Sequence record: NC_052654.1
Length of the DNA: 64,000 bases
Strand: one strand, 5' to 3'
Source of the DNA: Escherichia phage vB_EcoM-Ro121c4YLVW
Part shown: in pieces, positions 2,801-64,000 of the stretch
Layout: each line of letters starts with the position of its first letter
Numbering within the stretch: the stretch's first letter is position 1
The notes under the pieces: generated by a model
Seen by the model: the letters and a program-made list of their open reading frames with translations, nothing else
Database searches by the model: none
What the model was told of the DNA's origin: nothing
Made by a program: the position numbers and the translations under genes

Positions 2801-2806
2801 AATGCT

Positions 2807-2884: not shown

Positions 2885-2891
2885 ATAATTC

Positions 2892-2977: not shown

Positions 2978-2983
2978 TTAATT

Positions 2984-3287: not shown

Positions 3288-3292
3288 TAATC

Positions 3293-3692: not shown

Positions 3693-3694
3693 TT

Positions 3695-11028: not shown

Positions 11029-12143
11029 TGCAACAAACAAATCAAACGCTGTATGGTAAAGATTCAAAAGGAAAACTTAAACAGTGGACAGTATATACAG
11101 ATGGTGCAGTTGTTACTGTAGCTCATGGAAGAGTAGGTGGAAAGATCACAGAAAAATCTTATACAGCAGAAGCAAAAAACATTGGTCGTTCCAATGAAAC
11201 AACACCGGAAGAACAAGCTGAACTTGAAGCTTTTGCCAAATGGACAAAACAGTTAAAGAATGGCTATTATAAAACAAAAGAAGAAGCTGAAAACCATGTT
11301 CCTTCCACACCAATGAAATGCCAGGATTATAAAGATTATCCTGAAAGGGTTGTGTTCCCTGGTTATGCACAATACAAACTGAACGGGTTACGTTCTATGA
11401 TTAACATGAAAGGGGAGTGTTTATCAAAAGCTGGGGAAGTGTATAACCTGCCACCTCATTGGAAAGGTATTCCAAACTTTATTAGTGAAGTTGTTGGTCA
11501 TCCTCTTGATGGTGAAGTGTTTGCTGGGTTAGGTGTCCTTAGTCTGCAACAAATTAACAGTGCTTGGAAGAAGCATAATGCAAATACACCTTTGCTGAAT
11601 TATTACGTATACGATATTCCAGTTCCAGGTCTACCGTTTGAAAAACGTGTTGATGCTCTTGCTGCTCTTAAGGCAGTAGTTGAAGATTATGGTCTTGACG
11701 AGCTTATTTGTGTAGTTCATACAGAGTATATTGAAAACCAAGAGCAGTTTGACGCTTTCTATGAAAAAGCTTTACTTGAGAAAGCTGAAGGTGTAGTATA
11801 TCGTAATGCTCACGGAGTTTACGAATTTGATAAACGTTCTTATGACGTTATTAAACGTAAGCCTCGCCACACCCTTGAAGTTAAAGTAACAAATTCAAAA
11901 AGCGATAAAAATGGCGATGGAGTGTTGACAGGTGAGATGGAAAATGGTAAAGTAGTCGAATTCTTAATGCGTAAAGATGCTCATGAGACTATCAATTATC
12001 GTAAAGCAGAGAATGCTTCTACCTTGATTAATCAGTTCGTTGAAATAGAGTATGAAGAATTTTCAGATGAAGGTATTCCAACAAAACCTGTTGGTGTTCG
12101 TATTCGAGAAATGATCCTAGGCACTTGGGAACCAGCAGAGTAA
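11016..12143 (+). CDS. ATP-dependent nucleic-acid ligase-like nucleotidyltransferase (motif I KLNGLR, III LDGEV, V EGVVYR) with N-terminal WGR-like domain
   Basis: Covalent nucleotidyltransferase motifs in correct order; motif I Asp replaced by Asn. Confidence 0.5.
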   Translation: MGGLMQQTNQTLYGKDSKGKLKQWTVYTDGAVVTVAHGRVGGKITEKSYTAEAKNIGRSNETTPEEQAELEAFAKWTKQLKNGYYKTKEEAENHVPSTPMKCQDYKDYPERVVFPGYAQYKLNGLRSMINMKGECLSKAGEVYNLPPHWKGIPNFISEVVGHPLDGEVFAGLGVLSLQQINSAWKKHNANTPLLNYYVYDIPVPGLPFEKRVDALAALKAVVEDYGLDELICVVHTEYIENQEQFDAFYEKALLEKAEGVVYRNAHGVYEFDKRSYDVIKRKPRHTLEVKVTNSKSDKNGDGVLTGEMENGKVVEFLMRKDAHETINYRKAENASTLINQFVEIEYEEFSDEGIPTKPVGVRIREMILGTWEPAE

Positions 12144-36074: not shown

Positions 36075-36350
36075 GTGGGAATCGAAGATATCAAAGGTTA
36101 TAAGGCGCATACTGACGATAAGATTGGCAAGGTTAACGCTATTAAAGATGCAGAAGAGCGTTTAGGTTTAATCTTCAAAGCTTTAGAGGAAGAGTATTGT
36201 GAAGCATATCATGGGTCTTTTGACGGCACAGAAAAAGAATTAGGTCTTGCATACGAACGTATTGATCAAATCCGTTGTGCTATTAGACATTTAAAAGAAG
36301 CTAGTATGTGGGCTTGTCGTTCAGTTTTCCAACCAGAGGAGAAATACTAA
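36075..36350 (+). CDS. hypothetical protein (GTG start)
   Basis: GTG after AGGAGG within ORF 36036..36350. Confidence 0.4.
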   Translation: MGIEDIKGYKAHTDDKIGKVNAIKDAEERLGLIFKALEEEYCEAYHGSFDGTEKELGLAYERIDQIRCAIRHLKEASMWACRSVFQPEEKY

Positions 36351-36858: not shown

Positions 36859-36881
36859 AACCCGCTTCGGCGGGTTTTTTA
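36859..36881 (+). terminator. intrinsic terminator ACCCGC-TTCG-GCGGGT + TTTTTT
   Basis: Direct reading. Confidence 0.6.
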
Positions 36882-41568: not shown

Positions 41569-41596
41569 ACGACCTCCTATTGCTACAGATATGAAA

Positions 41597-41620
41597 AAAC
41601 CCGCCGAAGCGGGTTCTATT
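41597..41620 (-). terminator. intrinsic terminator ACCCGC-TTCG-GCGGGT + TTTTTT (minus strand), flanked by 10-bp direct repeat ctattgctac
   Basis: Direct reading. Confidence 0.5.
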
Positions 41621-45743: not shown

Positions 45744-46068
45744 ACTGTGCTACCTTTTCTTTTACCCAATCTACACGATCTTTATCATAATGTTGAGTGC
45801 CAAGGAAAAGACCATTGTGGAAACTTTCCTCACCGAAAGGATAAATCGGATCTAAACCATCTTCTTCAAATAACATTTTTAGTCTCTGTGATGTAGATTT
45901 CTTAGTTTCTGAGTTGTAGTTTGTGGTTATAAGCCAATCTTCCAAACAACGACACAAACCTTGACGAGAATCCCAAGGAAAAACACAATCTCCGACAGGA
46001 GCTTGTTCAGCCCATTTCAACCAGCCTTTAAAAAAGTTATACAGTATGTAGTCTTCAGTGTAATACAT
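45730..46068 (-). CDS. paralogous family A member (GLCxCL / PF(N,G) / R-x-x-WVKDR motifs)
   Basis: Start moved to Met after AAGGAGGAG; shares motifs with five other ORFs in this block. Confidence 0.5.
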   Translation of the reverse strand: MYYTEDYILYNFFKGWLKWAEQAPVGDCVFPWDSRQGLCRCLEDWLITTNYNSETKKSTSQRLKMLFEEDGLDPIYPFGEESFHNGLFLGTQHYDKDRVDWVKEKVAQYEWG

Positions 46069-46119
46069 TATCTCCTCCTTTACGTATACAATAACACCCC
46101 GAAGAACGGGGTGCAACTG

Positions 46120-46735: not shown

Positions 46736-47008
46736 TCACCCCCAAGAAATATTTATATATCTTACAATGTTTGCACTGTCTAAAGCCATGTTTGCACCAC
46801 ACCCACGCTCGCGCCAGTAACTAACAATACCTTCACAGATACTCTCTTGTATCTTCTTATCACTTGGCATTTCTAGTATAAGACTTGGATTGTGGATGTT
46901 TATGTTATAATATCCTTCCTCTGCGGCTTGAGCTACCAATTTACTTACTTTTTCAAAGTACGGGGAATTAGTGGCATCTGCCATTGTTTTTAAGGTTTGT
47001 CTATCCAT
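46736..47008 (-). CDS. hypothetical protein
   Basis: ORF track. Confidence 0.4.
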   Translation of the reverse strand: MDRQTLKTMADATNSPYFEKVSKLVAQAAEEGYYNINIHNPSLILEMPSDKKIQESICEGIVSYWRERGCGANMALDSANIVRYINISWG

Positions 47009-47373
47009 TATTCTGCCTCATCATAGAAGAAATCCAACTCTTGTTCCAGTTGTTTAACTCGATCCTTAACCCACTGTACACGTTTTTCATTAAACATGCA
47101 ACGTTTTTCCTTACACTCTTGCTCAAAAGATTTTGCTGTGTTAAACGGGAAAGTTGTATCTAAACCAGCATTTTCAAAACTGGCTAATTGCATACCATAA
47201 ACAGAATATGCTAAAGAATGATCGGCTCGAAATTCATCACTTATATACATACGTAGACCTCGGCATAAGCCAACATCAGCGTAACCACTTTCTCGTGGAA
47301 AGAGACGGAGGTGTTCTAACCAATTATTATAGAAATCTAAAAGAATCCTCTTACACTTCAAATCAATTGTCAT
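47008..47373 (-). CDS. paralogous family A member
   Basis: Start moved to Met after GAAGGAGAAAC; motifs FYNNWL, GLCRGL, FPFN, VQWVKDRV. Confidence 0.5.
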   Translation of the reverse strand: MTIDLKCKRILLDFYNNWLEHLRLFPRESGYADVGLCRGLRMYISDEFRADHSLAYSVYGMQLASFENAGLDTTFPFNTAKSFEQECKEKRCMFNEKRVQWVKDRVKQLEQELDFFYDEAE

Positions 47374-47773
47374 AAAAAGTTTCTCCTTCATCGAACAAGT
47401 TGGCAAGATTGTTCACCGCAATTTGGGTGGAAAGAAGACAACTGTTTGCAGACACATAAGCACGGGCTATTTTGTAAACATAAGCTTTCGTATTGCAATC
47501 TTCTAAAATCGGAAGACTTTCATCGATAGCATCTATAACACTAAACATTACATCTAAAACTTTAATGGTGAGTGTTGTATTTGTATCTTCGTAACCTTTT
47601 TCAATCCGACCTGAATAGAAAGTATAGTCCTCAACAGTTCGTCGTTTAAATTGGCGCATAAAATCAGAACCATCTGTAGCAGAATTGAACAAATTTTCAA
47701 AAAATACCTCCCATCCGGCAAAAAGGGCTGACAGCATGATTAAGTGGTCTACAGATTCATTTTCTTGTTTCAT
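47363..47773 (-). CDS. hypothetical protein
   Basis: ORF track. Confidence 0.4.
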   Translation of the reverse strand: MKQENESVDHLIMLSALFAGWEVFFENLFNSATDGSDFMRQFKRRTVEDYTFYSGRIEKGYEDTNTTLTIKVLDVMFSVIDAIDESLPILEDCNTKAYVYKIARAYVSANSCLLSTQIAVNNLANLFDEGETFYDN

Positions 47774-47781
47774 ATCCTCTC

Positions 47782-48459
47782 CTATTTAATGTTCAATCTA
47801 GCACACAAGCGAGAAACAGTTTTAGCATCCCACTTACCACCACGTGCTGTTGCGATTTTCTTACTATTGAATTTTTCAGCAATAGTTTTGTAAGGTGTAT
47901 TTAAATCTCTAAGGATCTCCAAGCGTTCACGGAATGTCTCTGCAAAAGCGTCTGCTTTAACAGAATTGTATTCCATTTTTCCTTTTCTACGTGCAGCGGC
48001 AGTTTTAGGATTAGCACTGCCTAATAAAACACCTTTGCTTTTTGCTACAGCAAGACCCTTTTTAATACGATCAGCAATACCTCTGACTTCTTGTTCAGCC
48101 AGAACAGACAGAAGCTGTATAACCATTTTATCTGCATCTGGCATGATGGCTATCTTAACATCGATCATTTCTAGAAGAGTTGCTACGGAGGCGTTGTTAC
48201 GACCCAAGCGGTCAACTTTAGCTACCAATAAAGTTGCTCCGGTAGCTTTACACATTTCAACCGCTTTGACCAGTTCCTTACGTTGCTTCCAATCGCCCTT
48301 ACCCGAATAGTATTCAGAAAATTGACCAATAACTTCAGCATCAGGCACAGAGTCTAAGAAGTAACGGATATCGTTCTCTTGGCTCTCCATACCATATTGT
48401 GCCTCACCTTTTTTCTGTTTAGAAAGACGACTGTAAACAACAAACTTTTTCATAACCAC
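47782..48459 (-). CDS. small serine recombinase (resolvase/invertase family)
   Basis: N-terminal VYSRLSKQKK (catalytic Ser region), LLVAKVDRLGRN, C-terminal HTH-like basic tail; 225 aa. Confidence 0.7.
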   Translation of the reverse strand: MVMKKFVVYSRLSKQKKGEAQYGMESQENDIRYFLDSVPDAEVIGQFSEYYSGKGDWKQRKELVKAVEMCKATGATLLVAKVDRLGRNNASVATLLEMIDVKIAIMPDADKMVIQLLSVLAEQEVRGIADRIKKGLAVAKSKGVLLGSANPKTAAARRKGKMEYNSVKADAFAETFRERLEILRDLNTPYKTIAEKFNSKKIATARGGKWDAKTVSRLCARLNIK

Positions 48460-48482
48460 TCCTAAACCATTGCTGTATTCTC

Positions 48483-48511
48483 ACTTTACAAAACGAATAA
48501 ACACTTGTCAA
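48483..48511 (-). promoter_or_regulatory. sigma70-like promoter TTGACA-N17-TAAAGT driving the recombinase gene
   Basis: Direct reading on minus strand. Confidence 0.45.
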
Positions 48512-48523
48512 GGTATTTATTAT

Positions 48524-48736
48524 TTACAGCCATTCTACTTTTAAGCAGTATTCTTCGACATGTTGTTTACGCTTGTTTTTGTCTATGTAAGTGTATTCAA
48601 CAAATGTCCCAAGATAATCCTTGTCCACATTGTGTTGGCTATTAATTGGACATTTAGTACGACAAACCCGTTGCCACTGACGAAGAATTACGGCTTTGTT
48701 TTTAGGATCAAAGGGATGAGGGTAATGTGCCTTCAT
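48524..48736 (-). CDS. hypothetical protein
   Basis: ORF track. Confidence 0.4.
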   Translation of the reverse strand: MKAHYPHPFDPKNKAVILRQWQRVCRTKCPINSQHNVDKDYLGTFVEYTYIDKNKRKQHVEEYCLKVEWL

Positions 48737-49060
48737 TCACGCCTCCTGTTTTAGTCGAAAAATATTTTGAATAACTAGAGATGTATAGTTATCACTTAGT
48801 CCCATAAGTTCTACTTCCAAGTTTCGAATATCTTCCACCGTAGGAGGATATGTTGGTAAAAATGCTTGAGCATTGCCAGATCCGACCTCATTGCTGTAAG
48901 CAGTTGTAAAATTGTAAGATACAAAACATGAAACACCTTTTTGTCGGTACCCGATTAATCGACGAATACACCAGATAAGAGCCAAACCTATGAGAACACC
49001 TCCTAAACCAGCCAACAAGAAGGATAAGTTCATAATAGCTTCGTTAACAACTGCTTGCAT
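48737..49060 (-). CDS. membrane protein
   Basis: ORF track; TM helix. Confidence 0.4.
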   Translation of the reverse strand: MQAVVNEAIMNLSFLLAGLGGVLIGLALIWCIRRLIGYRQKGVSCFVSYNFTTAYSNEVGSGNAQAFLPTYPPTVEDIRNLEVELMGLSDNYTSLVIQNIFRLKQEA

Positions 49061-49070
49061 TCTTTTCTCC

Positions 49071-49418
49071 TTAGTTATGTAAACCCAAATGTGCTACAAC
49101 TTCTCTACGATAAGATAACTGCATAGCGATTTTATAGCCAGGATGAAAACCATTTACATCAATGTCATCAAACCAAACCTCAAACGAACCGTGCTTAAGG
49201 GTCATTAAGTTGATATACCATTCGATAGTATAATGATCGTTAGCAATACCTTCGATGTAAAACTCTCGGCAACAATGAGATAAATCTTCACTTGTTTCAC
49301 GTTTCCAGTCTTTGATAGCACCCTTCTCTTTAGCTTTATTCAGAATGTGGATCAGGTCTTCAACTTGCATATTCTCTCCTTTAGTTCCAACTAATAACGA
49401 TGTGTTTGATAATCCCAA
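49071..49418 (-). CDS. hypothetical protein
   Basis: ORF track. Confidence 0.4.
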   Translation of the reverse strand: MGLSNTSLLVGTKGENMQVEDLIHILNKAKEKGAIKDWKRETSEDLSHCCREFYIEGIANDHYTIEWYINLMTLKHGSFEVWFDDIDVNGFHPGYKIAMQLSYRREVVAHLGLHN

Positions 49419-49935
49419 AAATACTGTGCTCTGCGGTTGCCAATGTTACATCCAAACCTTTTGCACGTAGCATTGTAGCTACAACATTTGCCCCTCTTTT
49501 CTGTTCACTTATCTGTTCATAAGAAGAAGGGTTATTGCACAAACCAAAACTGGAAGGTTCAAAGTATTTTTCAAACTTCCCTTGTTCTGCACAATCTTCA
49601 ATCTCTAATAGAACGGCGTCTACCATTTCAGTAAAATGGGAATTTGCTTGCAGTGCTTTATTACGCAGTTTATCACGTAAACTTCCCGTAGATTCTTCCT
49701 GCTCTTCTGTCTGTCCATCTTCACAGAAAGGATGAAGTTCAGCCCAGTCCCAAGCATCTCCTTCTAAAGCAAATGGAGTGTTGTAATTGAAGAAAGTGCA
49801 GCGCGGATATTCCCCGTTGAAAGAATCTTTCAGCAGAATATATTTCTTACCGTTTGCATGGAAGAGTTCTCCTTTGATAACCTTACCTACAAGGATATCA
49901 CTGTTAGTGGAACGGGTGCAAATAAATTTTTTCAT
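49381..49935 (-). CDS. hypothetical protein
   Basis: ORF track. Confidence 0.4.
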   Translation of the reverse strand: MKKFICTRSTNSDILVGKVIKGELFHANGKKYILLKDSFNGEYPRCTFFNYNTPFALEGDAWDWAELHPFCEDGQTEEQEESTGSLRDKLRNKALQANSHFTEMVDAVLLEIEDCAEQGKFEKYFEPSSFGLCNNPSSYEQISEQKRGANVVATMLRAKGLDVTLATAEHSIFGIIKHIVISWN

Positions 49936-49997: not shown

Positions 49998-50219
49998 TTA
50001 TTTCCATTCCCCTTGGTGTTCTTTGATCTCATAAGAGTAGTATTCGAACATGCTCATACAAACCACACCAGACATTTCTAAACAAAGAGGTTTACTATTA
50101 TAAAAGGCACTTATCATTCTTCCAGCTTTATCTGCTGACTCTTTAGTATCACATCCGCAAACTGTTCTCACCCAAGGATTAGGGCCATCATACTTAAGAC
50201 GCACAATCCACATGATCAT
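49998..50219 (-). CDS. hypothetical protein
   Basis: ORF track. Confidence 0.4.
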   Translation of the reverse strand: MIMWIVRLKYDGPNPWVRTVCGCDTKESADKAGRMISAFYNSKPLCLEMSGVVCMSMFEYYSYEIKEHQGEWK

Positions 50220-50443: not shown

Positions 50444-50769
50444 TATTCATCCTCCTCTGCAATACGATCTCTTACCCAATTAATCCTGTCCACGTTCAGG
50501 TGACATACCTCTGCATCTGATTCTAAGATATATGCATCGTAGTTCTCATTGAAAGGGAGTGCTTGACTCAACCCTTTGTGGTAAAACTGTGCGTGCATTT
50601 CATCTGACAAGATTGTTATAATGGGGTTGTAATTACCTCTGTGCACATAATCGAACAAGTTGGCACACAAACCACAATCCCGCCGAAAAGGTTTACCATC
50701 AGGAGCACCAACATCAATCCATGCTAGATAAATTTTATAAAACTCCATCAACCTTGTGCTTGTTTTCAT
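50443..50769 (-). CDS. paralogous family A member
   Basis: SD GAGGTGG; motifs FYKIYLAWI, GLCANL, LPFN, INWVRDRI. Confidence 0.5.
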   Translation of the reverse strand: MKTSTRLMEFYKIYLAWIDVGAPDGKPFRRDCGLCANLFDYVHRGNYNPIITILSDEMHAQFYHKGLSQALPFNENYDAYILESDAEVCHLNVDRINWVRDRIAEEDE

Positions 50770-51898: not shown

Positions 51899-52345
51899 TT
51901 AAACCTCTGTCAAAGAGAAACGCCAATCCTTACTACTACCTACACCAAGGAAGATATAGTCTCCGGTACTAACGGAATATCTCCAAGCGGGAATCCAATC
52001 AGGAATCTCTGGCTTATGGCTGTAGCCATAACGCTCGCCACTCGAATCTGTTGCAATATAATTAACAAATTCAGGAACCTCTAAAGTTTCACCTTGATAC
52101 TCTACACGCTTGAAGCCATCTTCCACTTCTTTCTCACCTTCTACCAGAAGGGCAAGAAATTTGATGTGAGGGCAAGTGAAATCTTGTCCTGGATAACGTG
52201 AACGGATATCTGTTAACAATGCGACTACAGCATCCGATAACTCTTTATAATCCTCATATCTTACAAATGTGCCTTCTGTCGGATCATCAGGACACAAACG
52301 CCAAACATCGTTGCAGTTTACAGCGTAATGTCTCATTTTAGTCAT
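51899..52345 (-). CDS. hypothetical protein
   Basis: ORF track. Confidence 0.45.
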   Translation of the reverse strand: MTKMRHYAVNCNDVWRLCPDDPTEGTFVRYEDYKELSDAVVALLTDIRSRYPGQDFTCPHIKFLALLVEGEKEVEDGFKRVEYQGETLEVPEFVNYIATDSSGERYGYSHKPEIPDWIPAWRYSVSTGDYIFLGVGSSKDWRFSLTEV

Positions 52346-52354
52346 AAATCCCCC

Positions 52355-52753
52355 TTATCGTTGCGTACAATCAGCTTCTAGAGTAAGAACATTCGTTATT
52401 GTTTTATCATTTTTTAGAAATGCAAACCAAGCCAAAGTGTCTCGATACTCTGTGCGCATCATTACTACTTCAGTAGTGCCAATAAATTGTTGTGAACCGT
52501 ACATAGCACTACCATCTTTACTTTTTTCTCCTGTGTATTGCAGAATGCCACTCATCAAAGCACCACCTGAATTTTTAAGGATAAAGGAGTTATCTTTATT
52601 AATGACAACAGAAGCCATTTTCTTAGGACCAGAAATCACTTCACCTTTCAGATTTTTAACAACCACATCTGACACACACTCATAAACTTGAGACGCATTT
52701 GCTGTTCCAAGTGATGCAACGAGTAGCAATAAACCTACAATGATCTTTTTCAT
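52355..52753 (-). CDS. secreted protein (signal peptide)
   Basis: ORF track; N-terminal MKKIIVGLLLLVASLGTANA. Confidence 0.45.
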   Translation of the reverse strand: MKKIIVGLLLLVASLGTANASQVYECVSDVVVKNLKGEVISGPKKMASVVINKDNSFILKNSGGALMSGILQYTGEKSKDGSAMYGSQQFIGTTEVVMMRTEYRDTLAWFAFLKNDKTITNVLTLEADCTQR

Positions 52754-53483: not shown

Positions 53484-53720
53484 TTATTTGTCTTGCTTGT
53501 ATCTTACAAGGCGATCACACTCCAGGTCAAGAAATTTCTCCGCATTTCGTTCATGTTTGAGCACAATACATTGTTCTTTCCAGTCTGTAGCTCTTTGCTG
53601 CGCTGCTCCTGGGTCAAAATCCCAAAGCCATGCCGCGAAAAGAACAACCATAACAATTACCAAGAAACTAAACACTATTGGCATTGCACATCCTCCTGTG
53701 TAGCATGATCTTTTACCCAT
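53484..53720 (-). CDS. small membrane protein
   Basis: ORF track; TM helix. Confidence 0.4.
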   Translation of the reverse strand: MGKRSCYTGGCAMPIVFSFLVIVMVVLFAAWLWDFDPGAAQQRATDWKEQCIVLKHERNAEKFLDLECDRLVRYKQDK

Positions 53721-53989
53721 TTTATACGGGCAGCATTCAAATGCAATAGCCCGTTTCTTTGTGCAAAATCATATTTAAACCAGTCTCCGTCATCAAACGG
53801 GTATTCTTCAGACAATCCTGCTTCTCGAAATTGCATTTGCATTTCATAATTTAGGTCATCATAACCACCAGACCAAAGATAGAGGCAACTGCACAAACCT
53901 TTATCGTGCCAGAAAGGATTATTATCTGGAGCACCAGCTAACAGCCAATTATGATAGGCTTGATAAAATTCTTTAAGTTCTTCTGACAT
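53675..53989 (-). CDS. paralogous family A member
   Basis: SD AGGGGG; motifs FYQAYHNWL, GLCSCL, YPFD, IKWVKDH. Confidence 0.5.
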   Translation of the reverse strand: MSEELKEFYQAYHNWLLAGAPDNNPFWHDKGLCSCLYLWSGGYDDLNYEMQMQFREAGLSEEYPFDDGDWFKYDFAQRNGLLHLNAARIKWVKDHATQEDVQCQ

Positions 53990-54187
53990 TTAACCCCCTG
54001 TGTACAGTGTTGAAAGATACACAGCAAAAGCATTCTCGGCTGTTTTAACCTCCTCTTCAAGATCTTCACGCTCTGCTGGCGTTAGCGCATTTCGCACAGC
54101 AGCGTCTGCTTCTCGGATTTTTCTTACTAAACGTGAAACATCTTTCAGTTGTTGAAAAGTAGCCATAATCTTCCTCCTTTTAGTCAA
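53990..54187 (-). CDS. hypothetical protein
   Basis: ORF track. Confidence 0.4.
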   Translation of the reverse strand: MTKRRKIMATFQQLKDVSRLVRKIREADAAVRNALTPAEREDLEEEVKTAENAFAVYLSTLYTGG

Positions 54188-54479: not shown

Positions 54480-54651
54480 GAGTTTCTCGGTATTTGTTTA
54501 AAGCTTTCTCAATGGCTGTAGCAAAAACATCTTGTGATTTATAAGGCATATAATAAGAGCGTCCCATGTATGCCACTGCATCACGTAATTCTTCTGCTTG
54601 CTCTTGTGTAACTGTCAATGTGATAGTAACCATTATTTCACCTCCGACCAA
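54424..54651 (-). CDS. hypothetical protein
   Basis: ORF track. Confidence 0.35.
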   Translation of the reverse strand: MVGGEIMVTITLTVTQEQAEELRDAVAYMGRSYYMPYKSQDVFATAIEKALNKYRETHAVPKVSAEEFGTWHEVH

Positions 54652-54959: not shown

Positions 54960-55397
54960 TTACAGCAGATCTAATGCTTTCAACTCTTCTTTCAATGATT
55001 CAGGCAGGTCACATTCAATGTCAATCAGAGATAACAAGTGACCAACAATGCCTTCCAGATGTTGATACTCACTATAACTTATAAATTCAGAATTGTAAAC
55101 AGAAACATCCTTAGTTTCTTTCACAACTTCCCCCGCAGACACGCACATAAAAAAGTTACGCTCTCCGCGAGCTAACAATATCTCCCAACTTCTGAACGGA
55201 TACTGTCCAGCTTCAATAATATCTCCGCTGTCCAATAAGGTCAATGAGCAAACAGACCCTGATTCACTAACATCTTCGACGCGGAAACAAGACCCTTCAA
55301 TCAAAGCTGCCATTTTGAAATTTTCATCAGAGATCATAGAGAAAGCTTCACATGCAGCTTTGCTTTTGAAACAGTAAACAGCATTAATTTTAAACAT
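54960..55397 (-). CDS. hypothetical protein
   Basis: ORF track. Confidence 0.45.
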   Translation of the reverse strand: MFKINAVYCFKSKAACEAFSMISDENFKMAALIEGSCFRVEDVSESGSVCSLTLLDSGDIIEAGQYPFRSWEILLARGERNFFMCVSAGEVVKETKDVSVYNSEFISYSEYQHLEGIVGHLLSLIDIECDLPESLKEELKALDLL

Positions 55398-55409
55398 AAC
55401 ATTCTCCTT

Positions 55410-55868: not shown

Positions 55869-56322
55869 TGCTCTCTCCTCCTAGTTCATCATACCATTTC
55901 AAAGCGTCTTTTGGAAGCATACCAAAATCTTCTTTTAGCTCTTTTTCAATCTCTTCTTGCATTTCCATCAGCATTTTCAATTGACGGACTTTTTTGTGCA
56001 TAGCCACATTCCTTTCATTAAGGTTTGTCACTACATTATTTGCACGACTCGGTGGAAACGACAAAGGTTTCACGGGAAGATAATCTTCGATATTATCTAG
56101 TGCGTTACGAAAATTATGATCCAAGAAACGCACATCTACACGATTGTAATCGGCAGCTACAACAGTGAACACTTTAAACGGCACATTGGATAAAGTATGT
56201 TGCACACAGACAGTACCCATATTACCTTCAATTTTACTGGTAACTTCCAGCACACCTGTATGAGCACTAACATAATCGTGAACACATTGCACATAGGCTG
56301 CCAGTATAGTGAATTGTCTCAT
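55861..56322 (-). CDS. hypothetical protein
   Basis: ORF track. Confidence 0.45.
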   Translation of the reverse strand: MRQFTILAAYVQCVHDYVSAHTGVLEVTSKIEGNMGTVCVQHTLSNVPFKVFTVVAADYNRVDVRFLDHNFRNALDNIEDYLPVKPLSFPPSRANNVVTNLNERNVAMHKKVRQLKMLMEMQEEIEKELKEDFGMLPKDALKWYDELGGESNV

Positions 56323-57052: not shown

Positions 57053-57436
57053 TTATTCAATGCAAGCATTATTTGCATCTTCAATGCGATCTTTCACCCA
57101 TTGCACACGAAACTTGTTGGTATGACACGCTAAAGCTATACACTCTGAAAGGTAATCCATGCAATCTGCATTGAACGGAAGATTGTAGTCCAGCCCTGCA
57201 CATGTAAATTGTTTCCTCATTTCATATTTCAAACGGTCTAACAAATGATCACGCCATCTTCTATCTTCTTCTCTAGTTGTCTCACCAACAAAATCATCTA
57301 CATAGTCTACCAGACAACCACATAAGCCACTCGTTGTGCGATTCATTGCAGGATAGTTGGCAATCCATGCTTTATAGAAGCGAAGCAATGTTGCACTACT
57401 CAACGGAATACTATTTGTCATTTTTCTCTCCTTCAT
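57053..57436 (-). CDS. paralogous family A member
   Basis: SD AAGGAGAG; motifs FYKAWI, GLCGCL, LPFN, VQWVKDRI. Confidence 0.5.
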   Translation of the reverse strand: MKERKMTNSIPLSSATLLRFYKAWIANYPAMNRTTSGLCGCLVDYVDDFVGETTREEDRRWRDHLLDRLKYEMRKQFTCAGLDYNLPFNADCMDYLSECIALACHTNKFRVQWVKDRIEDANNACIE

Positions 57437-57755
57437 AATCTTGAATTCTATCTAGCACCCATTGTATACGATGTTTGTTTTTATGGCAAATATGTTTTTT
57501 ATGTTCGAAGGTGTATTCCTCATAACCACCTTCATTAAACGGGAAATTGTAATCCAATCCTGCACCAATAAACTGTGATTTCATCTCCTGTTGTAGACGA
57601 GGTAACAGTTCATCAGGATATGTTCCCTCTACATACTTAATCAAACATATGCACAAACCACTCGTTGTGTGACCTTCTACCTCACCAGCAAGCCAAGCTT
57701 TGTAAAACTTCATTAGACGTAAACTGCTCAACGGAACATTTTTACTCTTTTGCAT
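57411..57755 (-). CDS. paralogous family A member
   Basis: SD GAGGAGA; motifs FYKAWL, GLCICL, FPFN, IQWVLDRI. Confidence 0.5.
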   Translation of the reverse strand: MQKSKNVPLSSLRLMKFYKAWLAGEVEGHTTSGLCICLIKYVEGTYPDELLPRLQQEMKSQFIGAGLDYNFPFNEGGYEEYTFEHKKHICHKNKHRIQWVLDRIQDYEGEKNDK

Positions 57756-57759
57756 GACA

Positions 57760-59270
57760 ATCTCCTCTCATCGTTAGCCATCTTTCATGGCAATCATCAA
57801 TCACCAACATCATACGATCAATCTTAGGGAATTACAATCGAATTATCATAGGGGATTCCTATCAATTATCCCATATATACCGATTATTTTTGACACCCCA
57901 CTCTTGTATAAAAAGTAACCCAAAATATCTACGGGGAGAGATTATTTCGGGACACCCTGTTTCATAGCAATCATGGCAAGAATATCTAATAGAATCAATA
58001 TGATATGGCAAAAATCATGGCGCATACGTAAGAAGTGCTTAACGCGAATTTTCGGGCCGTCAGGTCCACGCAGCGACAATTCCCAAATATCATGCGAATG
58101 AGAATAATTATCATTCGTATTCAATGACTTATGCAAGGCTCATGCCAACATAGCGACAAGGTGGGCCACTTGATTATAAATCACACAAACACTTATTTAT
58201 CAATGGTTTGGCAACTTCATCATATGACGGAACAATGTCAACTGATCCCGCTCATGACAAGCAGACTATTATTTATATGAGAATGATTATTATTTAAACG
58301 TTTATTAACATATAAACTAAAATAAATCAAGAATTTTCTGATTTTATTTACGTTTAAGAGAAGGTGCTCAACATATCGCTACGCGATAGTATTCGCCCCC
58401 AAAAGATTAGCCTTTATTTTCTTGTATGTTTATACACTGCGTGTACATCTATGTGCACACTATGCAACCTGTCGCTATTCGCTCATGTTGCTACGTGCAA
58501 TTATTCATCTTGCTAATGATTTCATATTGTAACTATTACAATGACTATTGTTATTGCGCTAATGTTATGATCTTGGTAATTACATATAATGCTAATAATA
58601 AGCCAGCGCAATAAGTGTAAGCGTCATTACGCTTGCAATTATTGCAAGCTACGCAGTAACAAGAAATAACCGTCACCGATGGTTATGATTGTTGGGGTGT
58701 AGTTGGCTTATTATTAGCTCGCTATGTGTCCGGCATAGCGTGCTAATGATGACTCTGTGAATGATTCGTTTTGTAATGATTTCATTCAGGCACTATTTTG
58801 CTAATAGTTATTATTTTAATGGTTTCGTTTGTTATTGTTCGTTAGTTGGTTGTTTTGTCGTGTTATCGTTATCTTGCTTAGTATTCATCATGGTTTGATT
58901 GTTTGTCATTATCAATCATCTTGCTATTATTCCTTTGATTATGATTAGTTTGCTTATTGTTTTAGGTTGTTGGTTGGTTAGTTGTTGCGAACTATTATCA
59001 ACATTATAGTTATGCACTTATATTGCATAGATAAACATGGATAGATGATAATGGTTATCATTGCACCAGAAAGGAGGTAAAAGGGTGTTTTTGATGGTTT
59101 GTTGTTGGTTGTTGATCGATTTTAACCGCTTTAAATGGCTCTCTAACAGCCTGTTACCCTGGGAGGTATGGTTATTCATTTAATGGTTGATTAGCTTGAT
59201 ACCACTATTTATTCAGTTTTGTTCTGTGTCGGTTTTCCATAGGCGGAATCTATCAACATTGTTCGGGCAA
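57760..59270. repeat. 1.5-kb non-coding, repeat-rich region (GCTAAT-type short direct repeats, palindromes, G+T-skewed tract)
   Basis: No credible ORF; repeated gctaatg / gtaatgatttcat / ttgttattg motifs; palindromes aagcgtcattacgctt and cttgcaattattgcaag; long GT-rich tract 58800-59000. Confidence 0.5.
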
Positions 59271-59297
59271 AAAGAAAGGGCGCTTGGTGCGCCCCTT
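59271..59297 (-). terminator. intrinsic terminator GGGCGC-ttggt-GCGCCC + TTTCTTT (minus strand)
   Basis: Direct reading. Confidence 0.55.
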
Positions 59298-59310
59298 GTT
59301 TTGTTGTCGA

Positions 59311-59730
59311 TTATAACGCTTCATAGATTGAGTAGATCCGGTTTGCCAGGTCATTACGAAAGCGGAATTTTTCATCACGTTTAATCATCAGATCCTTAAA
59401 ACCGCATTCTTTCAAGGCTTCATTAACTTTATGGCGGCAAACGTTCATATTATCCTGCGCGTCACCAATAAACTTATTACTGTGATGCATTGCTTTGATC
59501 TCTTCCTCTAATACCAGGGCAACTACACGGACCGGATCAAGCTGATATGCGGTAACATCCATGCGGCATTGTAAACGGCTTTTAACATCGTTTACAGGAT
59601 ACACTGCAACCTCTTCCCCGTCAACGTTCACGATAACCAATTTACCATCGATTTCGAAGCCTTTGGCGGCGCTACCGTGACAAAAAGCGTTATCGAAGGA
59701 GTAAGCTGGATTATTTGATTTAATGTTCAT
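59311..59730 (-). CDS. hypothetical protein
   Basis: ORF track; own promoter and terminator. Confidence 0.5.
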   Translation of the reverse strand: MNIKSNNPAYSFDNAFCHGSAAKGFEIDGKLVIVNVDGEEVAVYPVNDVKSRLQCRMDVTAYQLDPVRVVALVLEEEIKAMHHSNKFIGDAQDNMNVCRHKVNEALKECGFKDLMIKRDEKFRFRNDLANRIYSIYEAL

Positions 59731-59775
59731 GATGTTGTCCTTTGTTTCGTTTCGTTGTTTGCTGCCAGTAAGTTA

Positions 59776-59804
59776 AATATAATATAACGCCGATCCCCTG
59801 TCAA
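59776..59804 (-). promoter_or_regulatory. sigma70-like promoter TTGACA-N17-TATATT (minus strand)
   Basis: Direct reading. Confidence 0.55.
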
Positions 59805-59837
59805 TAGGGGATAGCGCATTATTTACATTTCTTTACG

Positions 59838-59865
59838 TTAAAGGGCGCTTAGTGCGCCCTTGTAT
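59838..59865 (-). terminator. hairpin GGGCGC-ttagt-GCGCCC (terminator between monocistronic units)
   Basis: Direct reading. Confidence 0.45.
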
Positions 59866-59869
59866 AATC

Positions 59870-60238
59870 TTACTTTGTGCTGTTGTAAACGTTATCGCGT
59901 TCAACCATCAGGGCAAGGCGGATCAGTTGATCAGTTGTATCGCTTAAGCTTTTAGGCCATGTTTTACTGTTCCAGCTATCAAGATTAGATTGAATATATG
60001 TATCAATGGCTTGATCCATGTTGTCAAACAAGTTTTCTTCTAAGCTCTCGGCTGTTTCACACTGGAAAGCATTAGCCACACTATTAATCAGTAAGCAAGC
60101 CAGTAAATCAGCGTTACGCCAATTTTTACGGATAGTTTCATCTGTCAGATAACCAACGAGATTAACCTTTGCGCCAGTGGTGGACGTTGCGATCACTTCT
60201 TGCGCTTTTTCAACTGCTTTAATTGCTGATTTGCTCAT
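59870..60238 (-). CDS. hypothetical protein
   Basis: ORF 59870..60316 with start moved to Met after AGAGGAAAATAAA; upstream part overlaps promoter. Confidence 0.45.
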   Translation of the reverse strand: MSKSAIKAVEKAQEVIATSTTGAKVNLVGYLTDETIRKNWRNADLLACLLINSVANAFQCETAESLEENLFDNMDQAIDTYIQSNLDSWNSKTWPKSLSDTTDQLIRLALMVERDNVYNSTK

Positions 60239-60287
60239 TTTATTTTCCTCTTTGTGGGCTTGCTGTATTGCTTGCCCTACGAGATAA

Positions 60288-60316
60288 ATAATAATATAAG
60301 GGTGATCCGGTGTCAA
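60288..60316 (-). promoter_or_regulatory. sigma70-like promoter TTGACA-N17-TATTAT (minus strand)
   Basis: Direct reading. Confidence 0.55.
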
Positions 60317-60490
60317 TAGGTAGAATTGTAAAGATTCGATAGTTTATCTCTTTGATGTTTTGTTGTTTGATAGGTGTTAGCTATCAATATATAGCGGGGT
60401 CGTCCGGTGATTATCTTCCCTGTTGCCAGTGCCGCCCGTTCAATAAGCATAACAAAAAACAGGACAAAAACAAGCCCTGTTTTGTAAAGA

Positions 60491-60694
60491 TTAGATGATC
60501 TGCATATCCTCCACGATAATTTCTAATTTCCAAACAAGATGATCTAAGCTCCCTGATAAAAATGATTCCGATACATAACCGCCATCGGATACCGTAGCAA
60601 GGATCTCGCCATTTGCTTGCTCTTTGATTTGAACATCCAGGCGGTTAGCCTTTGCTTTATTCAGGACGGCGATCAGGCGGTTAGCTGTAGTCAT
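60491..60694 (-). CDS. hypothetical protein
   Basis: ORF 60491..60745; first 17 codons are translation of the leader hairpin repeat, so start moved to internal Met. Confidence 0.4.
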   Translation of the reverse strand: MTTANRLIAVLNKAKANRLDVQIKEQANGEILATVSDGGYVSESFLSGSLDHLVWKLEIIVEDMQII

Positions 60695-60699
60695 GGTGT

Positions 60700-60728
60700 T
60701 TCCTTCCAGTGGTGAGCGGCACCATTGC
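60700..60728 (-). repeat. GC-rich 5'-leader hairpin repeat (GTAGGGCGGCAATGGTGCCGCTCAC family), copy 1
   Basis: Near-identical copies at about 62040, 63285 and 63650, each 10-30 nt upstream of a minus-strand start codon. Confidence 0.55.
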
Positions 60729-60777
60729 CGCCCTACAAAACACATCTTACACTATCCGGCACATTGTGCAAGCTATT

Positions 60778-60969
60778 TTAAATCTTATCGCCAATATAAT
60801 CTGATCTGTTCTTCTCTGTCATGCGCTTTAATAATTCTTGCATATTGCTTATAGCTTGCAAGGTGTCTTCTTCCAGACTTGAATCAACATAATCAGGATC
60901 ATTCTTCACCTTGCTATAGTTGTGATAGCGTAACGCTGCTAATACCTTTCTAACTTGTTCCACGTTCAT
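60778..60969 (-). CDS. hypothetical protein
   Basis: ORF track. Confidence 0.4.
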   Translation of the reverse strand: MNVEQVRKVLAALRYHNYSKVKNDPDYVDSSLEEDTLQAISNMQELLKRMTEKNRSDYIGDKI

Positions 60970-61115
60970 AATGTACCCTTAAAATAGTGTGCCGATGGAA
61001 GATAGCAGGTCACTAACAACTAAAACCAGATCTACTATCACATATCTAATCAGGAAGGGGATAAGCGCCAGCGTCGCTACTATGATCCCCATTGTGATGA
61101 TCACCTTTCTCATCG

Positions 61116-61400
61116 TTAGCGGCTTACGTAGGCTTTACCGTTTACGGTCATCGGTATGGCTTCAAGGTCTGGATCTTCCTTAAGGTCGCGTGCAAGCTCA
61201 CCGCAGCGGATACCCTCGAATCCGTGATATTCTGTTACACCGTCGTTAAATGTTTTAGCGGCAAGGCATAGGCGATAATTAACGCCGATCCGGTTTATTG
61301 CGTTGATATCGGTTAGCGTGATGGATTCTGGCAACTCATTAGCCAGTACAGGCGCGTTAATACCAACAACCAGGGCAACTACTGCGATCATCTTTTTCAT
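61116..61400 (-). CDS. secreted protein (signal peptide)
   Basis: ORF track; MKKMIAVVALVVGINAPVLA. Confidence 0.45.
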   Translation of the reverse strand: MKKMIAVVALVVGINAPVLANELPESITLTDINAINRIGVNYRLCLAAKTFNDGVTEYHGFEGIRCGELARDLKEDPDLEAIPMTVNGKAYVSR

Positions 61401-61454
61401 GTGTCTATCCTCTTCCTATTGCGTTTAATGGGGCGTTACCGCCCCGCTTATGGT

Positions 61455-61691
61455 TTATTGATTGATGTTATGATGAAAGTTATTTTCTTCAATAGCTTTT
61501 AAAATAAAAGCCGTGATCGCTTTCGTGTCTACTTGTTCGAACGTATCAGAATAAGCCCAATAATAATCATCCCCTACTTTCGGCGGGTAAACCTGGACAA
61601 GGAGATCGCCACCTGGTTGATCTATAAGCTCAACATGCAAGCCGGATGATTCAGCGGTTTTAACGGCGTTTAATACTGTTGCAATACTCAT
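61455..61691 (-). CDS. hypothetical protein
   Basis: ORF track. Confidence 0.4.
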   Translation of the reverse strand: MSIATVLNAVKTAESSGLHVELIDQPGGDLLVQVYPPKVGDDYYWAYSDTFEQVDTKAITAFILKAIEENNFHHNINQ

Positions 61692-61735
61692 AATCTTTCC
61701 CTTTCTGATGTGGGGCGTTGCCGCCCCTTTGTTGA

Positions 61736-62035
61736 TTAGATCGCTGTTTCCAGTAGTTCGGCTAACGTCTTACCGCCTGATAGTTGGTCTAACGTTTGCT
61801 CTTCTGGCAAGAAATTAGCTGATATTAATCCGACTTGATTTCCTTTGTGCCAATTAGCTTGACGGATGATTCCATCCTTTAAAGATTTTACCGCCATTGT
61901 GCAACCGTCGCCAAATGATTCATTTTTATGATCCATTACTTCATAAGCGCCCAGCTTGCTGCTGTTAGGCACCATTAATGCGAATACATCACCAACAACC
62001 AGTTTTTCTACGGTAACAATAGCGATAGTTTCCAT
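61736..62035 (-). CDS. hypothetical protein
   Basis: ORF track. Confidence 0.4.
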   Translation of the reverse strand: METIAIVTVEKLVVGDVFALMVPNSSKLGAYEVMDHKNESFGDGCTMAVKSLKDGIIRQANWHKGNQVGLISANFLPEEQTLDQLSGGKTLAELLETAI

Positions 62036-62116
62036 TTTACTTTCCTCATTATCGGCGGCACCATTGCCGCCCTACGTGGTAAATATTAGCACACTGGCGA
62101 TCTGTGTCAATACTTT

Positions 62117-62503
62117 TTATTCAATATAAATCAAATTATCTTCACCAATGTAAGCCGACACGTTCGGCATAAACTTAGCTGCATTGGTTAGGCGGTTCGC
62201 CGTGTTAGTGGTGTATATTTCAGGGCGATCCCAAAAGCCTACGCCGTGACTGTTACGGGTAAAATGTAAATCATTCCCGATCTGGTTGGCTGTTGCGCCG
62301 TCGCTCATTGCCTCAGAGATAGCGGCATTATTGGCATCACAAAACGCCGCCACGTCACGTATGATCCGCTGATGGGCTTGATCTGAAAATTCATAATCAG
62401 TCATGTCATCTATAAAATTACCTTCATGATCCCTTGCGGATTCAGCAAAAATAAAGGCTTCTTTATAACCGTTGATGATTTCAATAATGATTTCTGTTTT
62501 CAT
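62117..62503 (-). CDS. hypothetical protein
   Basis: ORF track. Confidence 0.45.
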   Translation of the reverse strand: MKTEIIIEIINGYKEAFIFAESARDHEGNFIDDMTDYEFSDQAHQRIIRDVAAFCDANNAAISEAMSDGATANQIGNDLHFTRNSHGVGFWDRPEIYTTNTANRLTNAAKFMPNVSAYIGEDNLIYIE

Positions 62504-62724
62504 GCTGTACGCTCGACAATAATAATGGTTTGCGGTATCTCGTTTTCTACTACTAATAAGGCTTTTTTCTGCGTGATAGATATTTTAACACGTTGTAAAG
62601 TAGCGGTAAAATCTTTCATTTCATTATGCGCGGATTTAGTGCAATGCCAGATCTCAGGCTTACCTATTTGCAAGCCGCGTAAAAATTCTGTTTTACCTGT
62701 CTTATTCGTGATCATTTGATTCAC
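62500..62724 (-). CDS. hypothetical protein
   Basis: ORF track; ATGA overlap. Confidence 0.4.
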   Translation of the reverse strand: MNQMITNKTGKTEFLRGLQIGKPEIWHCTKSAHNEMKDFTATLQRVKISITQKKALLVVENEIPQTIIIVERTA

Positions 62725-62902
62725 CTTAACCGATACCGTGGGAAGATAGGATCATATTAGCCATAGTTGCAACCACTCCAACCGATAACGCCAGGCCCAC
62801 TATTACAACCGTGAAAATTTTCTCTAACATGATTCTACCCTCATTAATGGGCGTTGCCTTATTGCCCCGCCCTACGAAATACATTCTATCAGATAACAAA
62901 TT

Positions 62903-63049
62903 ATCGTCAAGATTTATTTTTTACTTCCCAAACGGAAAATTCGCTGCCTGTTGGGATCATCTTTTTAATCTTGTTTGCTGCCGCTACCAGGTCAACGGCT
63001 TGCACTGTAATAATATAACCAATTGTCGAGGCTGTTGCGTTGAAAGTTT
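62903..63049 (-). CDS. small hypothetical protein (about 48 aa)
   Basis: Minus-strand ATG downstream of hairpin GGCGGGA-TTAA-TCCCGCC. Confidence 0.25.
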
Positions 63050-63097
63050 TCATTATATTACCCTTTAATACAGGCGGGATTAATCCCGCCTTGTTGA

Positions 63098-63268
63098 TTA
63101 CTCTTCATCGTCGCCGTTATAGTATTCAATGCCATTTTCATCGGTTACGGTGATGTTAACGCCACCGATAGCAACACGATCACGGGCAAACGTCATGGCT
63201 TCATTTAAATCTTCAGACCAAAAAATATTGTGACCTTTGCGCGATACATAAAACATAGTCGGGATCAT
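63098..63268 (-). CDS. hypothetical protein
   Basis: ORF 63098..63352 with start moved to internal Met (upstream codons are the hairpin repeat). Confidence 0.35.
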   Translation of the reverse strand: MIPTMFYVSRKGHNIFWSEDLNEAMTFARDRVAIGGVNITVTDENGIEYYNGDDEE

Positions 63269-63353
63269 GATTTGTTTCTCTTCTGTTGTGAGCGGTGGAC
63301 CATTCCGCCGCCCTATGTGGTAAACTTTACTACGTTGTTTGCGTGCTGTCAAA

Positions 63354-63638
63354 TTATTTTTTAATGTTTTGCCCTACAAAATTAATCATTTCCTTAAGCT
63401 GTCTCTCTGTCATGATCGTACCTGGTAACTCTTCTTTAATTTCTTCCGGTAAATAAATATTACCGCGCCAGGTTAACAAACAACCGTTTTGATCTTCGCA
63501 GATAGAATAGGAAAACATCCACTCGCAATCATTTTCAAGCTCCCAAAAACACAAAAAGTCTTCTTTCCCTAAGTTTTCAACGGTTAAACATAATCCGCGA
63601 CGTGCTGCATAATTAGTTAGGCTTTTTGTGATTTTCAT
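63354..63638 (-). CDS. hypothetical protein
   Basis: ORF 63354..63689 with start moved to internal Met (MKITKSL). Confidence 0.4.
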   Translation of the reverse strand: MKITKSLTNYAARRGLCLTVENLGKEDFLCFWELENDCEWMFSYSICEDQNGCLLTWRGNIYLPEEIKEELPGTIMTERQLKEMINFVGQNIKK

Positions 63639-63717
63639 GATTTTTCTCTCTTCTTGTGAGCGGCACCATTGCCGCCCTACAAGATACATATTACCAGACT
63701 AAGCCGACTTGTCAAAC

Positions 63718-63828
63718 TATTTTTTCTTTTTCTTTGCTTCCAACCGTCTAAGGTTACGGCTTGACTTATTGCGCAAGGCGCTTAGATCGTCGTACCCTTT
63801 CCATGCTTGCATATCTTTCGGATTCATG
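63718..63828 (-). CDS. small basic hypothetical protein (about 36 aa)
   Basis: ATG after AAGGGGATAAC. Confidence 0.2.
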
Positions 63829-63840
63829 TTATCCCCTTAC

Positions 63841-63957
63841 TTGTTAGCCGGATTATATGCCAGGACCGCGCCGCTTGCTTTCACGCTTTCCGCTTCATAG
63901 TTGCGCAGATCGTTTTCTGTAAGGTTGAGCGCGATCACTTCCTCGATCTCAACGTCA
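63841..63957 (-). CDS. small hypothetical protein, may extend beyond the window
   Basis: Minus-strand ORF at window edge. Confidence 0.2.
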
Positions 63958-64000
63958 GCGGCAAGGGCGATCTCTTTGATAATGTCTGCTGTTTTCATAG

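Follow-up and report, generated by a model that had tools for sequence, protein, structure and literature searches.

A small serine recombinase is encoded on the minus strand of a 64,000-nucleotide stretch of DNA from Escherichia phage vB_EcoM-Ro121c4YLVW (NC_052654.1), the whole of which is referred to here as the window. According to the sequence comparisons described below, lytic myoviruses of the phAPEC8/phi92 type have long maintained the recombinase gene by vertical descent, and its product is almost certainly catalytically active. Regarding its function, the reading that fits best, and that we put forward with somewhat less than even confidence, is that the enzyme carries out a resolvase-type reaction early in infection, on a site present once per phage genome. 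The gene is already recorded in GenBank, and its product is an enzyme of an ordinary kind in an under-noticed place. Phages of the phAPEC8 and phi92 type are widely proposed for E. coli and Klebsiella therapy, safety screens take any site-specific recombinase as a marker of lysogeny, and two papers on these phages report no recombinase (PMC5374246, PMC10269720).

Distribution, selection and genomic setting of the recombinase

The region of the gene is 99.2% identical to Escherichia phage phAPEC8_ev052 (LR597654.1) and 97–99% identical to about 60 other Phapecoctavirus genomes, and by its sequence the source phage is a phAPEC8-like Phapecoctavirus of the subfamily Stephanstirmvirinae. A preliminary description of the window had taken it for a T4-like phage, in which such a recombinase would be an atypical gene. 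The phage is instead a virulent myovirus of about 150 kb, and the recombinase is universal within its own subfamily. A tblastn search found the protein in 166 phage records, 61 of them at an identity of at least 99%. Identities were 73% for the phiWec group, 57% for Justusliebigvirus/phi92 and 52–55% for Klebsiella relatives, and the most distant matches came from some marine Shewanella and Vibrio myoviruses (35–38%) and from some ICP1 isolates (30%). The surrounding 3.5-kb region is matched at an identity of at least 95% by 63 records, 63 records carry the protein at 80% or more, and no Phapecoctavirus without the recombinase was seen among about 63 records. None of the 60 matches listed is a Vequintavirus (the rV5 group), nor do the organism tallies have much room for this group. 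In public assemblies, 884 indexed blocks contain exactly this protein sequence.

Two Phapecoctavirus comparisons gave a ratio of nonsynonymous to synonymous substitution rates (dN/dS) of about 0.02 for the recombinase, with 15 synonymous changes and 1 nonsynonymous change relative to phage nieznany and 11 and 0, respectively, relative to iGC_PHA_EC001. Because of this low ratio and the conserved deep synteny, we regard the gene as serving a selected phage function, and a recombinase held at such a ratio in virulent phages represents an unexplained function. The copy in phage Schickermooser (NC_048196.1; positions 11000–11750 of locus L088) has 23 gap positions in 750 bp, which result from many deletions of 1–5 nt in the first 300 nt of the recombinase and in the end of the preceding open reading frame (ORF); the remainder of the gene is about 98% identical. 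This copy is either a real pseudogene or a local problem of sequence or assembly quality. Several GenBank records name the protein a resolvase or an invertase (one entry reads 'similar to Phi92_gp052; putative recombinase, resolvase family'), some label it 'methionine ABC transporter ATP-binding protein', and our literature searches found no functional study.

Genomes of this kind end in short direct repeats, which measure 328 bp in Schickermooser (PMC6563267) and 342 bp in BME3 (PMC12210895). At 58040–58368, the window contains a match to the Schickermooser repeat and therefore crosses the joined physical genome ends, with the right-end early region at 58369–64000 and the left-end early region below 58040. 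The recombinase belongs to a long series of small co-oriented early ORFs, at a distance of about 9.6 kb from the left end, and both in Phapecoctavirus and in the phiWec-like locus L008 it is found in this left-end early block, among paralogs. In five Justusliebigvirus-like lineages (L002, L009, L012, L013 and L015), an N6-adenine methyltransferase gene and a small acidic ORF precede the recombinase, and a small ORF also stands ahead of it in the partial FBKp34 locus (L005). Genes for PhoH, HslV, a phosphatase and a DprA-like protein lie close to it in the Justusliebigvirus-like loci, and a block ordered PhoH-HslV-...-recombinase-x-DprA is common to Justusliebigvirus and Shewanella phage 1/40. 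As the recombinase sits in different blocks in Justusliebigvirus and Phapecoctavirus, it must at some time have changed its transcription block. No ORF next to it is shared by all lineages, and we discarded the methyltransferase, small ORF and recombinase triad as a general partner set, since it is kept only in the Justusliebigvirus-like lineages. The two ICP1 records shown with the recombinase place it in a multi-gene stretch without legacy gene numbers, and its presence varies among isolates. The earlier proposal that the gene marks a mobile insertion fails within the genus, as the gene has a fixed place and fixed neighbours there, and applies only loosely at greater depth, where the Justusliebigvirus block differs and ICP1 is variable.

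Among more remote relatives, some are located just upstream of terminase genes in temperate-looking contigs. On a temperate-looking alphaproteobacterial contig (L021, 4359–5892), a homolog is divergent from a DprA-like ORF and a ComF-like phosphoribosyltransferase ORF, both assigned by reading the translations. This arrangement echoes the closeness of recombinase and DprA in Justusliebigvirus and Shewanella phage 1/40.

Gene structure and predicted protein architecture

The gene had been described as encoding a 225-residue protein. An ORF of this length exists in the ORF list of the window (47782..48459, minus strand), with the count starting at a GTG that overlaps the ribosome-binding site. 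As read from the sequence, the Shine-Dalgarno motif AGGAG (48459–48463, minus strand) overlaps this GTG and is placed 5 nt ahead of an ATG at 48453, and for this reason the ATG is most likely the real start, yielding a product of 223 residues. The coding sequence then spans 47782..48453 on the minus strand, with its stop codon at 47782–47784, and GenBank gives identical boundaries for phage Ro121lw (MH160766.1), under the label 'resolvase'. A consensus scan located the previously noted sigma-70-type promoter TTGACA-N17-TAAAGT directly upstream (48511..48483, minus strand; 10 of 12 matches). Across the AT-rich 8-kb region, 23 promoter-like matches were found and 21.6 expected by chance; the homologs of all 11 lineages examined nevertheless have a sigma-70-like promoter at this same place upstream, preceded in several of them by a terminator. 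Given that the next ORF begins 8 nt after the recombinase stop codon, the promoter probably serves downstream genes as well.

At the protein level, the Resolvase domain of Pfam (PF00239) was detected with an E value of 5.4e-18 (65.9 bits, compared to a cutoff of 23.3), and both motifs of the serine-recombinase signature singled out in the preliminary description, VYSRLSKQKK and LLVAKVDRLGRN, are present. The HTH_7 domain that was to be confirmed along with it yielded no Pfam match even at E ≤ 1. In an alignment of 38 homologs reaching down to 31% identity, residues Y7, R9, S11, Q25, R58, D81, R82 and R85 are invariant; on the basis of established knowledge and of the alignment to Tn3 and gamma-delta resolvase, we take these to include the nucleophilic serine and the Arg/Asp/Arg active site. 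Moreover, the segment VAKVDRLGRN aligns with the LDRLGR motif of the two resolvases. An AlphaFold (AF2) model built from the 38-homolog alignment reached a mean predicted local distance difference test (pLDDT) score of 89.5, and Foldseek matched it with a probability of 1.00 to the catalytic domains of Sin, gamma-delta resolvase, TP901-1 and Bxb1, the top match being Bxb1 integrase (9iu2_A), aligned across 259 columns. The model, the Foldseek matches and the invariant residues together delineate a catalytic domain with a beta-alpha core (residues 1–105; 48139..48453, minus strand; Ser11 codon at 48421–48423). In the DSSP assignment of the model, this domain is followed by a long alpha-E-like helix (residues 109–139; 48037..48129, minus strand), which aligns with the E-helix region of Tn3 and gamma-delta resolvase. 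The remainder forms a putative DNA-binding domain (residues 149–219; 47797..48009, minus strand) predicted to consist of four helices (149–172, 175–183, 188–197 and 210–219).

This C-terminal part of about 75 residues is predicted to resemble the first part of the 'recombinase domain' of large serine recombinases, and not HTH_7, given its four helices and the PF07508 ('Recombinase') matches that are above threshold in several relatives, as precomputed for family members. In the phage protein itself, the PF07508 match is below threshold (residues 189–218, 18.2 bits compared to 21.1) and covers profile positions 19–48 of 102. Profile searches against solved structures matched Gin (1e-17) and Tn3/gamma-delta resolvase (about 1e-16), with matches ending around residue 150–170 and thus confined to the catalytic part, and the protein was assigned in PHROGs to phrog_125, labelled 'DNA invertase'. 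None of the curated NCBIfam equivalogs (YneB, XisF, Mpi, CcrB) scored above its cutoff, the best being a YneB-like match of 32.5 bits compared to 175. By its sequence, the protein belongs to a clade of uncharacterised small serine recombinases, whose C-terminus is like the start of the large-serine-recombinase domain.

Compared to known systems, the phage enzyme shares with Tn3/gamma-delta resolvase and Sin the N-terminal catalytic domain with its R-S ... D-R-x-x-R pattern and long E helix, the size of about 200 residues and a promoter of its own just upstream. It is, however, only about 20–25% identical to them, carries a C-terminal domain of a different kind, and has neither a detected res-like three-subsite region nor a transposon or plasmid context. 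The C-terminal helices recall the first part of the 'recombinase domain' of Bxb1, phiC31, A118 and TP901-1, for which the PF07508 match is weak here; whereas these large serine recombinases comprise 450–600 residues, the phage protein has 223 and is without the remainder of the recombinase domain, a zinc ribbon or a coiled coil, and neither attP/attB sites nor lysogeny were seen (5,426 E. coli genomes). In IS607-type serine transposases the DNA-binding domain is N-terminal, whereas here the catalytic domain starts at residue 1.

Comparison of genomes around the recombinase

The six-copy paralogous family that had been reported on both sides of the recombinase is real, with copies at 45745–46116, 47011–47406, 50446–50769, 53690–53986, 57077–57436 and 57426–57728, which share only 27–40% amino-acid identity. 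All six are on the minus strand, and recombination between them could therefore delete but not invert. We rebuilt 146.9 kb of the Phapecoctavirus genome from the window and two fetched pieces and compared it to itself. Apart from terminator hairpins, this self-comparison revealed no inverted pair longer than 22 nt, and in a complete 144.8-kb Justusliebigvirus genome the longest inverted pairs were terminator hairpins, reaching about 32 nt. Neither genome contains a direct or inverted repeated site involving the surroundings of the recombinase. The repeats that the scans of the window and of both genomes did return were terminator hairpins, an early hairpin family in promoters and 5'-untranslated regions (5'-UTRs), and motifs close to the terminal repeat. 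In the Phapecoctavirus genome, the longest inverted pair with a perfect match is formed by two identical 22-nt hairpins (AACCCGCTTCGGCGGGTTTTTT) at 36859–36880 and 41594–41615, which lie in opposite orientation 4.7 kb apart. We read them as terminators, one of which is placed at a convergent junction after a Sir2-like gene, and the hairpin recurs in Justusliebigvirus.

A 25-kb query around the recombinase matched about 60 genomes, each in one place and on one strand, except for genomes matched in two places, where the record ends lie inside the query, and for WPEC2, an unusually long assembly, matched in 11 places. In addition, 14 independent loci of ±10 kb, ten of which were picked from metagenome and run assemblies for their differing neighbours, were all colinear, with zero inverted high-scoring segment pairs, and in every one of them the recombinase was flanked by the same three ORFs on either side. 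A weak inverted repeat of 38 nt (46753–46790 and 48889–48926, 74% complementary) does bracket the recombinase. We rejected it as a crossover pair, as it lies in coding DNA, is not conserved (for one of the two ORFs holding it, no homolog exists in L008, a relative with 75% identity), and encloses a segment that is inverted in none of 130 records. Taken together, the co-oriented copies, the absence of an inverted-repeat pair beyond terminator hairpins in the two genomes and the colinearity of the loci largely refute the inversion or shufflon-like switch among paralogs envisaged in the preliminary description.

Isolates of the genus differ by many indels of small ORFs, the breakpoints of which mostly fall at junctions of stop codon, ribosome-binding site and ATG and show 5–21 bp of microhomology. 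As candidate recombinase sites these breakpoints were rejected, since they share no common site and are not in the paralogs, and the sequence points to the usual microhomology mosaicism or turnover of gene cassettes, not to a common recombination site. Hot spots of such indels, where isolates carry extra or alternative small ORFs, are found at 49385–49721, 50000–50184, 52343–52355, 54174–54184, 54631–54637, 55389–55409 and 55874–55879.

A proposed resolvase-type reaction on a single site

Full-length relatives of the phage protein, with 35–40% identity over 95–99% of its length, are encoded on non-mobilizable plasmids of 5.8–7.3 kb. On pMaD11 of Marinovum algicola, the homolog adjoins ParA and follows a non-coding stretch of about 680 bp; the homolog on a 5.8-kb Klebsiella plasmid has a 34-bp palindrome (TATCATTTGTTTGCCG-AA-CGGCAAATTTATGATA) located 34–67 bp upstream of it. 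Lone serine recombinases on such small plasmids are usually multimer resolvases. The 'recombinase family proteins' of these plasmids (pMaD11 and the Klebsiella plasmids of 5.8–6.5 kb) have the same architecture over their full length and occur as a lone recombinase with a long non-coding leader, whereas the phage gene resides in a lytic phage and has no comparable palindrome upstream. It is because the full-length relatives sit on small plasmids, with a ParA neighbour or a palindrome, that we favour a resolvase-type reaction on one site.

In such a reaction, the enzyme would apply the usual serine-recombinase chemistry, that is, concerted double-strand cuts with a 2-nt stagger, subunit rotation and religation, to two copies of a single site, one per phage genome. 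The outcome would be resolution or circularisation of replicating or multimeric phage DNA early in infection, a reaction other than an inversion or cassette-shuffling switch. One site per genome is proposed because no repeated site was found around the recombinase in the two genomes and no rearrangement in the genomes compared, and early expression because a promoter lies upstream in all 11 lineages and the gene is positioned in the left-end block of small ORFs. A functional analogy is offered by Cre-loxP of phage P1, in which a phage tyrosine recombinase acts on one site per genome, circularises incoming DNA and resolves dimers. P1 is temperate and Cre belongs to an unrelated family, and no site in the 328-bp terminal repeat has been tied to the phage recombinase. 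Of the roles raised in the preliminary description, resolution of genome multimers survives, by analogy with the plasmid enzymes.

Several points weigh against a resolvase-type reaction. Packaging in these phages starts from concatemers, and their terminal repeats are short, at 328–342 bp (PMC6563267, PMC12210895). Multimer resolution is without obvious benefit to such a phage and could be harmful late in infection. Similarity of the catalytic domain fails to separate resolvases from invertases, as the values for Gin and Tn3/gamma-delta resolvase illustrate, and the multimer-resolvase role of the plasmid homologs is itself assigned by analogy. The broken Schickermooser copy, if real, would make the gene dispensable in culture. 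Furthermore, a search for upstream repeated half-sites forming a res-like cluster found none above shuffled expectation in 11 lineages, a test that a diverged single site would escape. Near the recombinase of the window no significant dyad was detected, the best candidate (AATAATAAATACCTTGACAAGTGTTTATTCGT) being expected 0.53 times per 100 bp, and upstream dyads are not enriched family-wide (71 loci compared to 530 control intergenic regions, p = 0.33). It is the missing site and the unclear benefit to a concatemer-packaging phage that keep our confidence in the resolvase-type reaction below even.

Candidate sites and conserved non-coding elements

The dyad AATAATAAATACCTTGACAAGTGTTTATTCGT (48493..48524, minus strand) lies over the -35 box and is a candidate operator or site, with 10 of 14 arm matches, which is chance level. 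The strong upstream dyads of L009, L016 and L032 were rejected as sites because they fold as mRNA hairpins (z = -3.0 to -3.3). Such leader hairpins occur at 5966–5995 in L009, 5947–5980 in L016 and 4114–4147 in L032, with a weaker one at 5970–5995 in L010, and they cover the ribosome-binding site in L009, L010 and L032, whereas the Phapecoctavirus leader in the window has no such hairpin (z = +1.2). Judged from sequence, these hairpins suggest that translation of the recombinase is tightly controlled in the other lineages.

The non-coding sequences that both genera conserve are early promoters followed by a 5'-UTR hairpin, terminators, tRNAs and certain elements close to the terminal repeat. 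Among the latter is a Fur-box-like dyad, GAKAATRATTATCATT, which is present twice in each terminal repeat and has 4 matches in the 64 kb, compared to 0.49 expected. Within the window, it is located at 58097–58115, 58279–58294 and 59047–59062, in and beside the terminal repeat only, and elsewhere we found it in BME3 (L095; 53–71, 251–266, 1162–1180 and 1220–1235) and in slur16 (L096; 1793–1826). The dyad is kept in the terminal repeat of Justusliebigvirus and in the Vequintavirus slur16. It was set aside as a target of the enzyme because it is also present in slur16, the group of which is absent among the recombinase matches listed; a host Fur site is one possible identity of the dyad, a signal for packaging or replication another.

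A further element is a single-copy hairpin or dyad of 41 bp (58710–58750), which is situated about 370 bp before the terminal repeat and has its core, CTATGCCGGACACATAG, at 58722–58738. Its 7-nt centre, CCGGACA, is invariant, and its arms differ between Phapecoctavirus and Justusliebigvirus by paired compensatory changes. In 125 records of E. coli Stephanstirmvirinae the hairpin is single-copy and always close to the right end, where the DNA carries no annotation, and the equivalent region of slur16 contains a different hairpin. We did not retain it as a target, since its co-occurrence with the recombinase in all E. coli Stephanstirmvirinae may reflect shared ancestry. For both GAKAATRATTATCATT and the 41-bp hairpin, packaging or replication roles are at least as likely as a role as enzyme target. 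Many small early ORFs are preceded by a module of promoter and 5'-UTR stem-loop (GTAGGGCGGCAATGGTGCCGC), copies of which are located at 60691–60756, 62055–62095, 63296–63336 and 63635–63700 of the window, with about 10 more in L093. This module is also present in Justusliebigvirus and the Vequintavirus slur16, gave no Rfam match, and resembles the promoter-early-stem-loop cassettes of T4-type phages.

Alternative functions

A wider proposal is that an entire lineage of strictly lytic myoviruses, which package with terminal repeats, maintains a small serine recombinase of plasmid type by strong purifying selection for the sake of some step of lytic genome processing as yet undescribed in virulent phages, be it site-specific circularisation or resolution of multimers in early replicating DNA or a targeted rearrangement of host DNA; we hold this to be doubtful. 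Considered separately, an early enzyme that rearranges or breaks host, prophage or defence-island DNA during takeover is unlikely. It would be in keeping with the host-type promoter, the position in an early host-takeover block and the lack of a target found on the phage genome. Set against this, the hosts of the family span E. coli, Klebsiella, Shewanella and Vibrio, so a shared host site would need to be highly conserved. In addition, the recombinase matched no PADLOC or anti-defence family, and we know of no precedent.

Slightly less probable still is that the recombinase acts as a small serine integrase, of which one has been described for the Ralstonia phage phiRSM, or as the engine or relic of a self-mobilising cassette. 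The gene and its own promoter do occupy different transcription blocks in Phapecoctavirus and Justusliebigvirus, ICP1 copies lie inside the stretch that lacks legacy gene numbers, and distant homologs are found at the edge of a P. aeruginosa prophage and beside the small terminase of a P4-like element. In a sensitive blastn search of 46800–49300 against 5,426 complete E. coli genomes, however, only chance matches were returned (best E = 9); these genomes therefore contain neither a prophage copy nor a shared core of more than about 25 bp, and an integrase role is without support in E. coli at the sequence level. Moreover, the gene keeps its place and its immediate neighbours in all Phapecoctavirus contexts, has no repeats at its flanks and occurs in one copy only, and the low dN/dS and deep synteny indicate a selected phage function. 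That the recombinase is genuine and selected, with no sign of integration in the E. coli genomes or of an invertible switch, should help in reading safety screens of these phages.

A protein that has lost recombination and serves only as a site-specific DNA-binding repressor is very improbable. Resolvases repress their own promoters, and the weak dyad over the -35 box of this phage, as well as the stronger dyads or hairpins sequestering the ribosome-binding site just upstream in L009, L016 and L032, would suit such a regulator. Yet all catalytic residues are invariant across the family, which would be needless for pure DNA binding, and the dyads show no conservation of sequence and no enrichment across the family. 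Least probable of all is a DNA invertase that, like Gin, Cin, Hin and Pin, would flip a segment among paralogs or tail-fibre genes to switch expression: the enzyme is likewise a phage-borne small serine recombinase, its best PHROG family is 'DNA invertase', its profile match to Gin is slightly better than that to resolvases and the weak 38-nt repeat brackets it, but it lacks HTH_7, crossover sites of about 26 bp in inverted orientation and an invertible segment, its phage is virulent and not temperate, and the paralog orientation, inverted-pair scans and colinear genomes described above are all at odds with a switch.

Other features of the window

Just upstream of the recombinase, a minus-strand ORF of 70 residues (48524–48736) encodes a DUF7202 protein (E = 1.8e-37) and is 78–81% identical at the nucleotide level to a T4-like phage gene (the tk.3 region of AR1). 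It is the only neighbour of the recombinase in the window for which Pfam gave a match, and in some records the label 'ABC transporter ATP-binding protein' is attached to this ORF or to the recombinase. Farther away, a plus-strand ORF of 91 residues (36075–36350) contains an Acb2/Tad1 hairpin domain (E = 5.8e-17) and, by its sequence, likely encodes a cyclic-nucleotide sponge against CBASS or Thoeris defence. A tRNA cluster on the minus strand (1757–3769) comprises 10–11 genes, for Met (two), Ile, Pro, Gln, Gly, Thr, Asn, Ser and Arg, with an additional weak Rfam match at 2987–3071.

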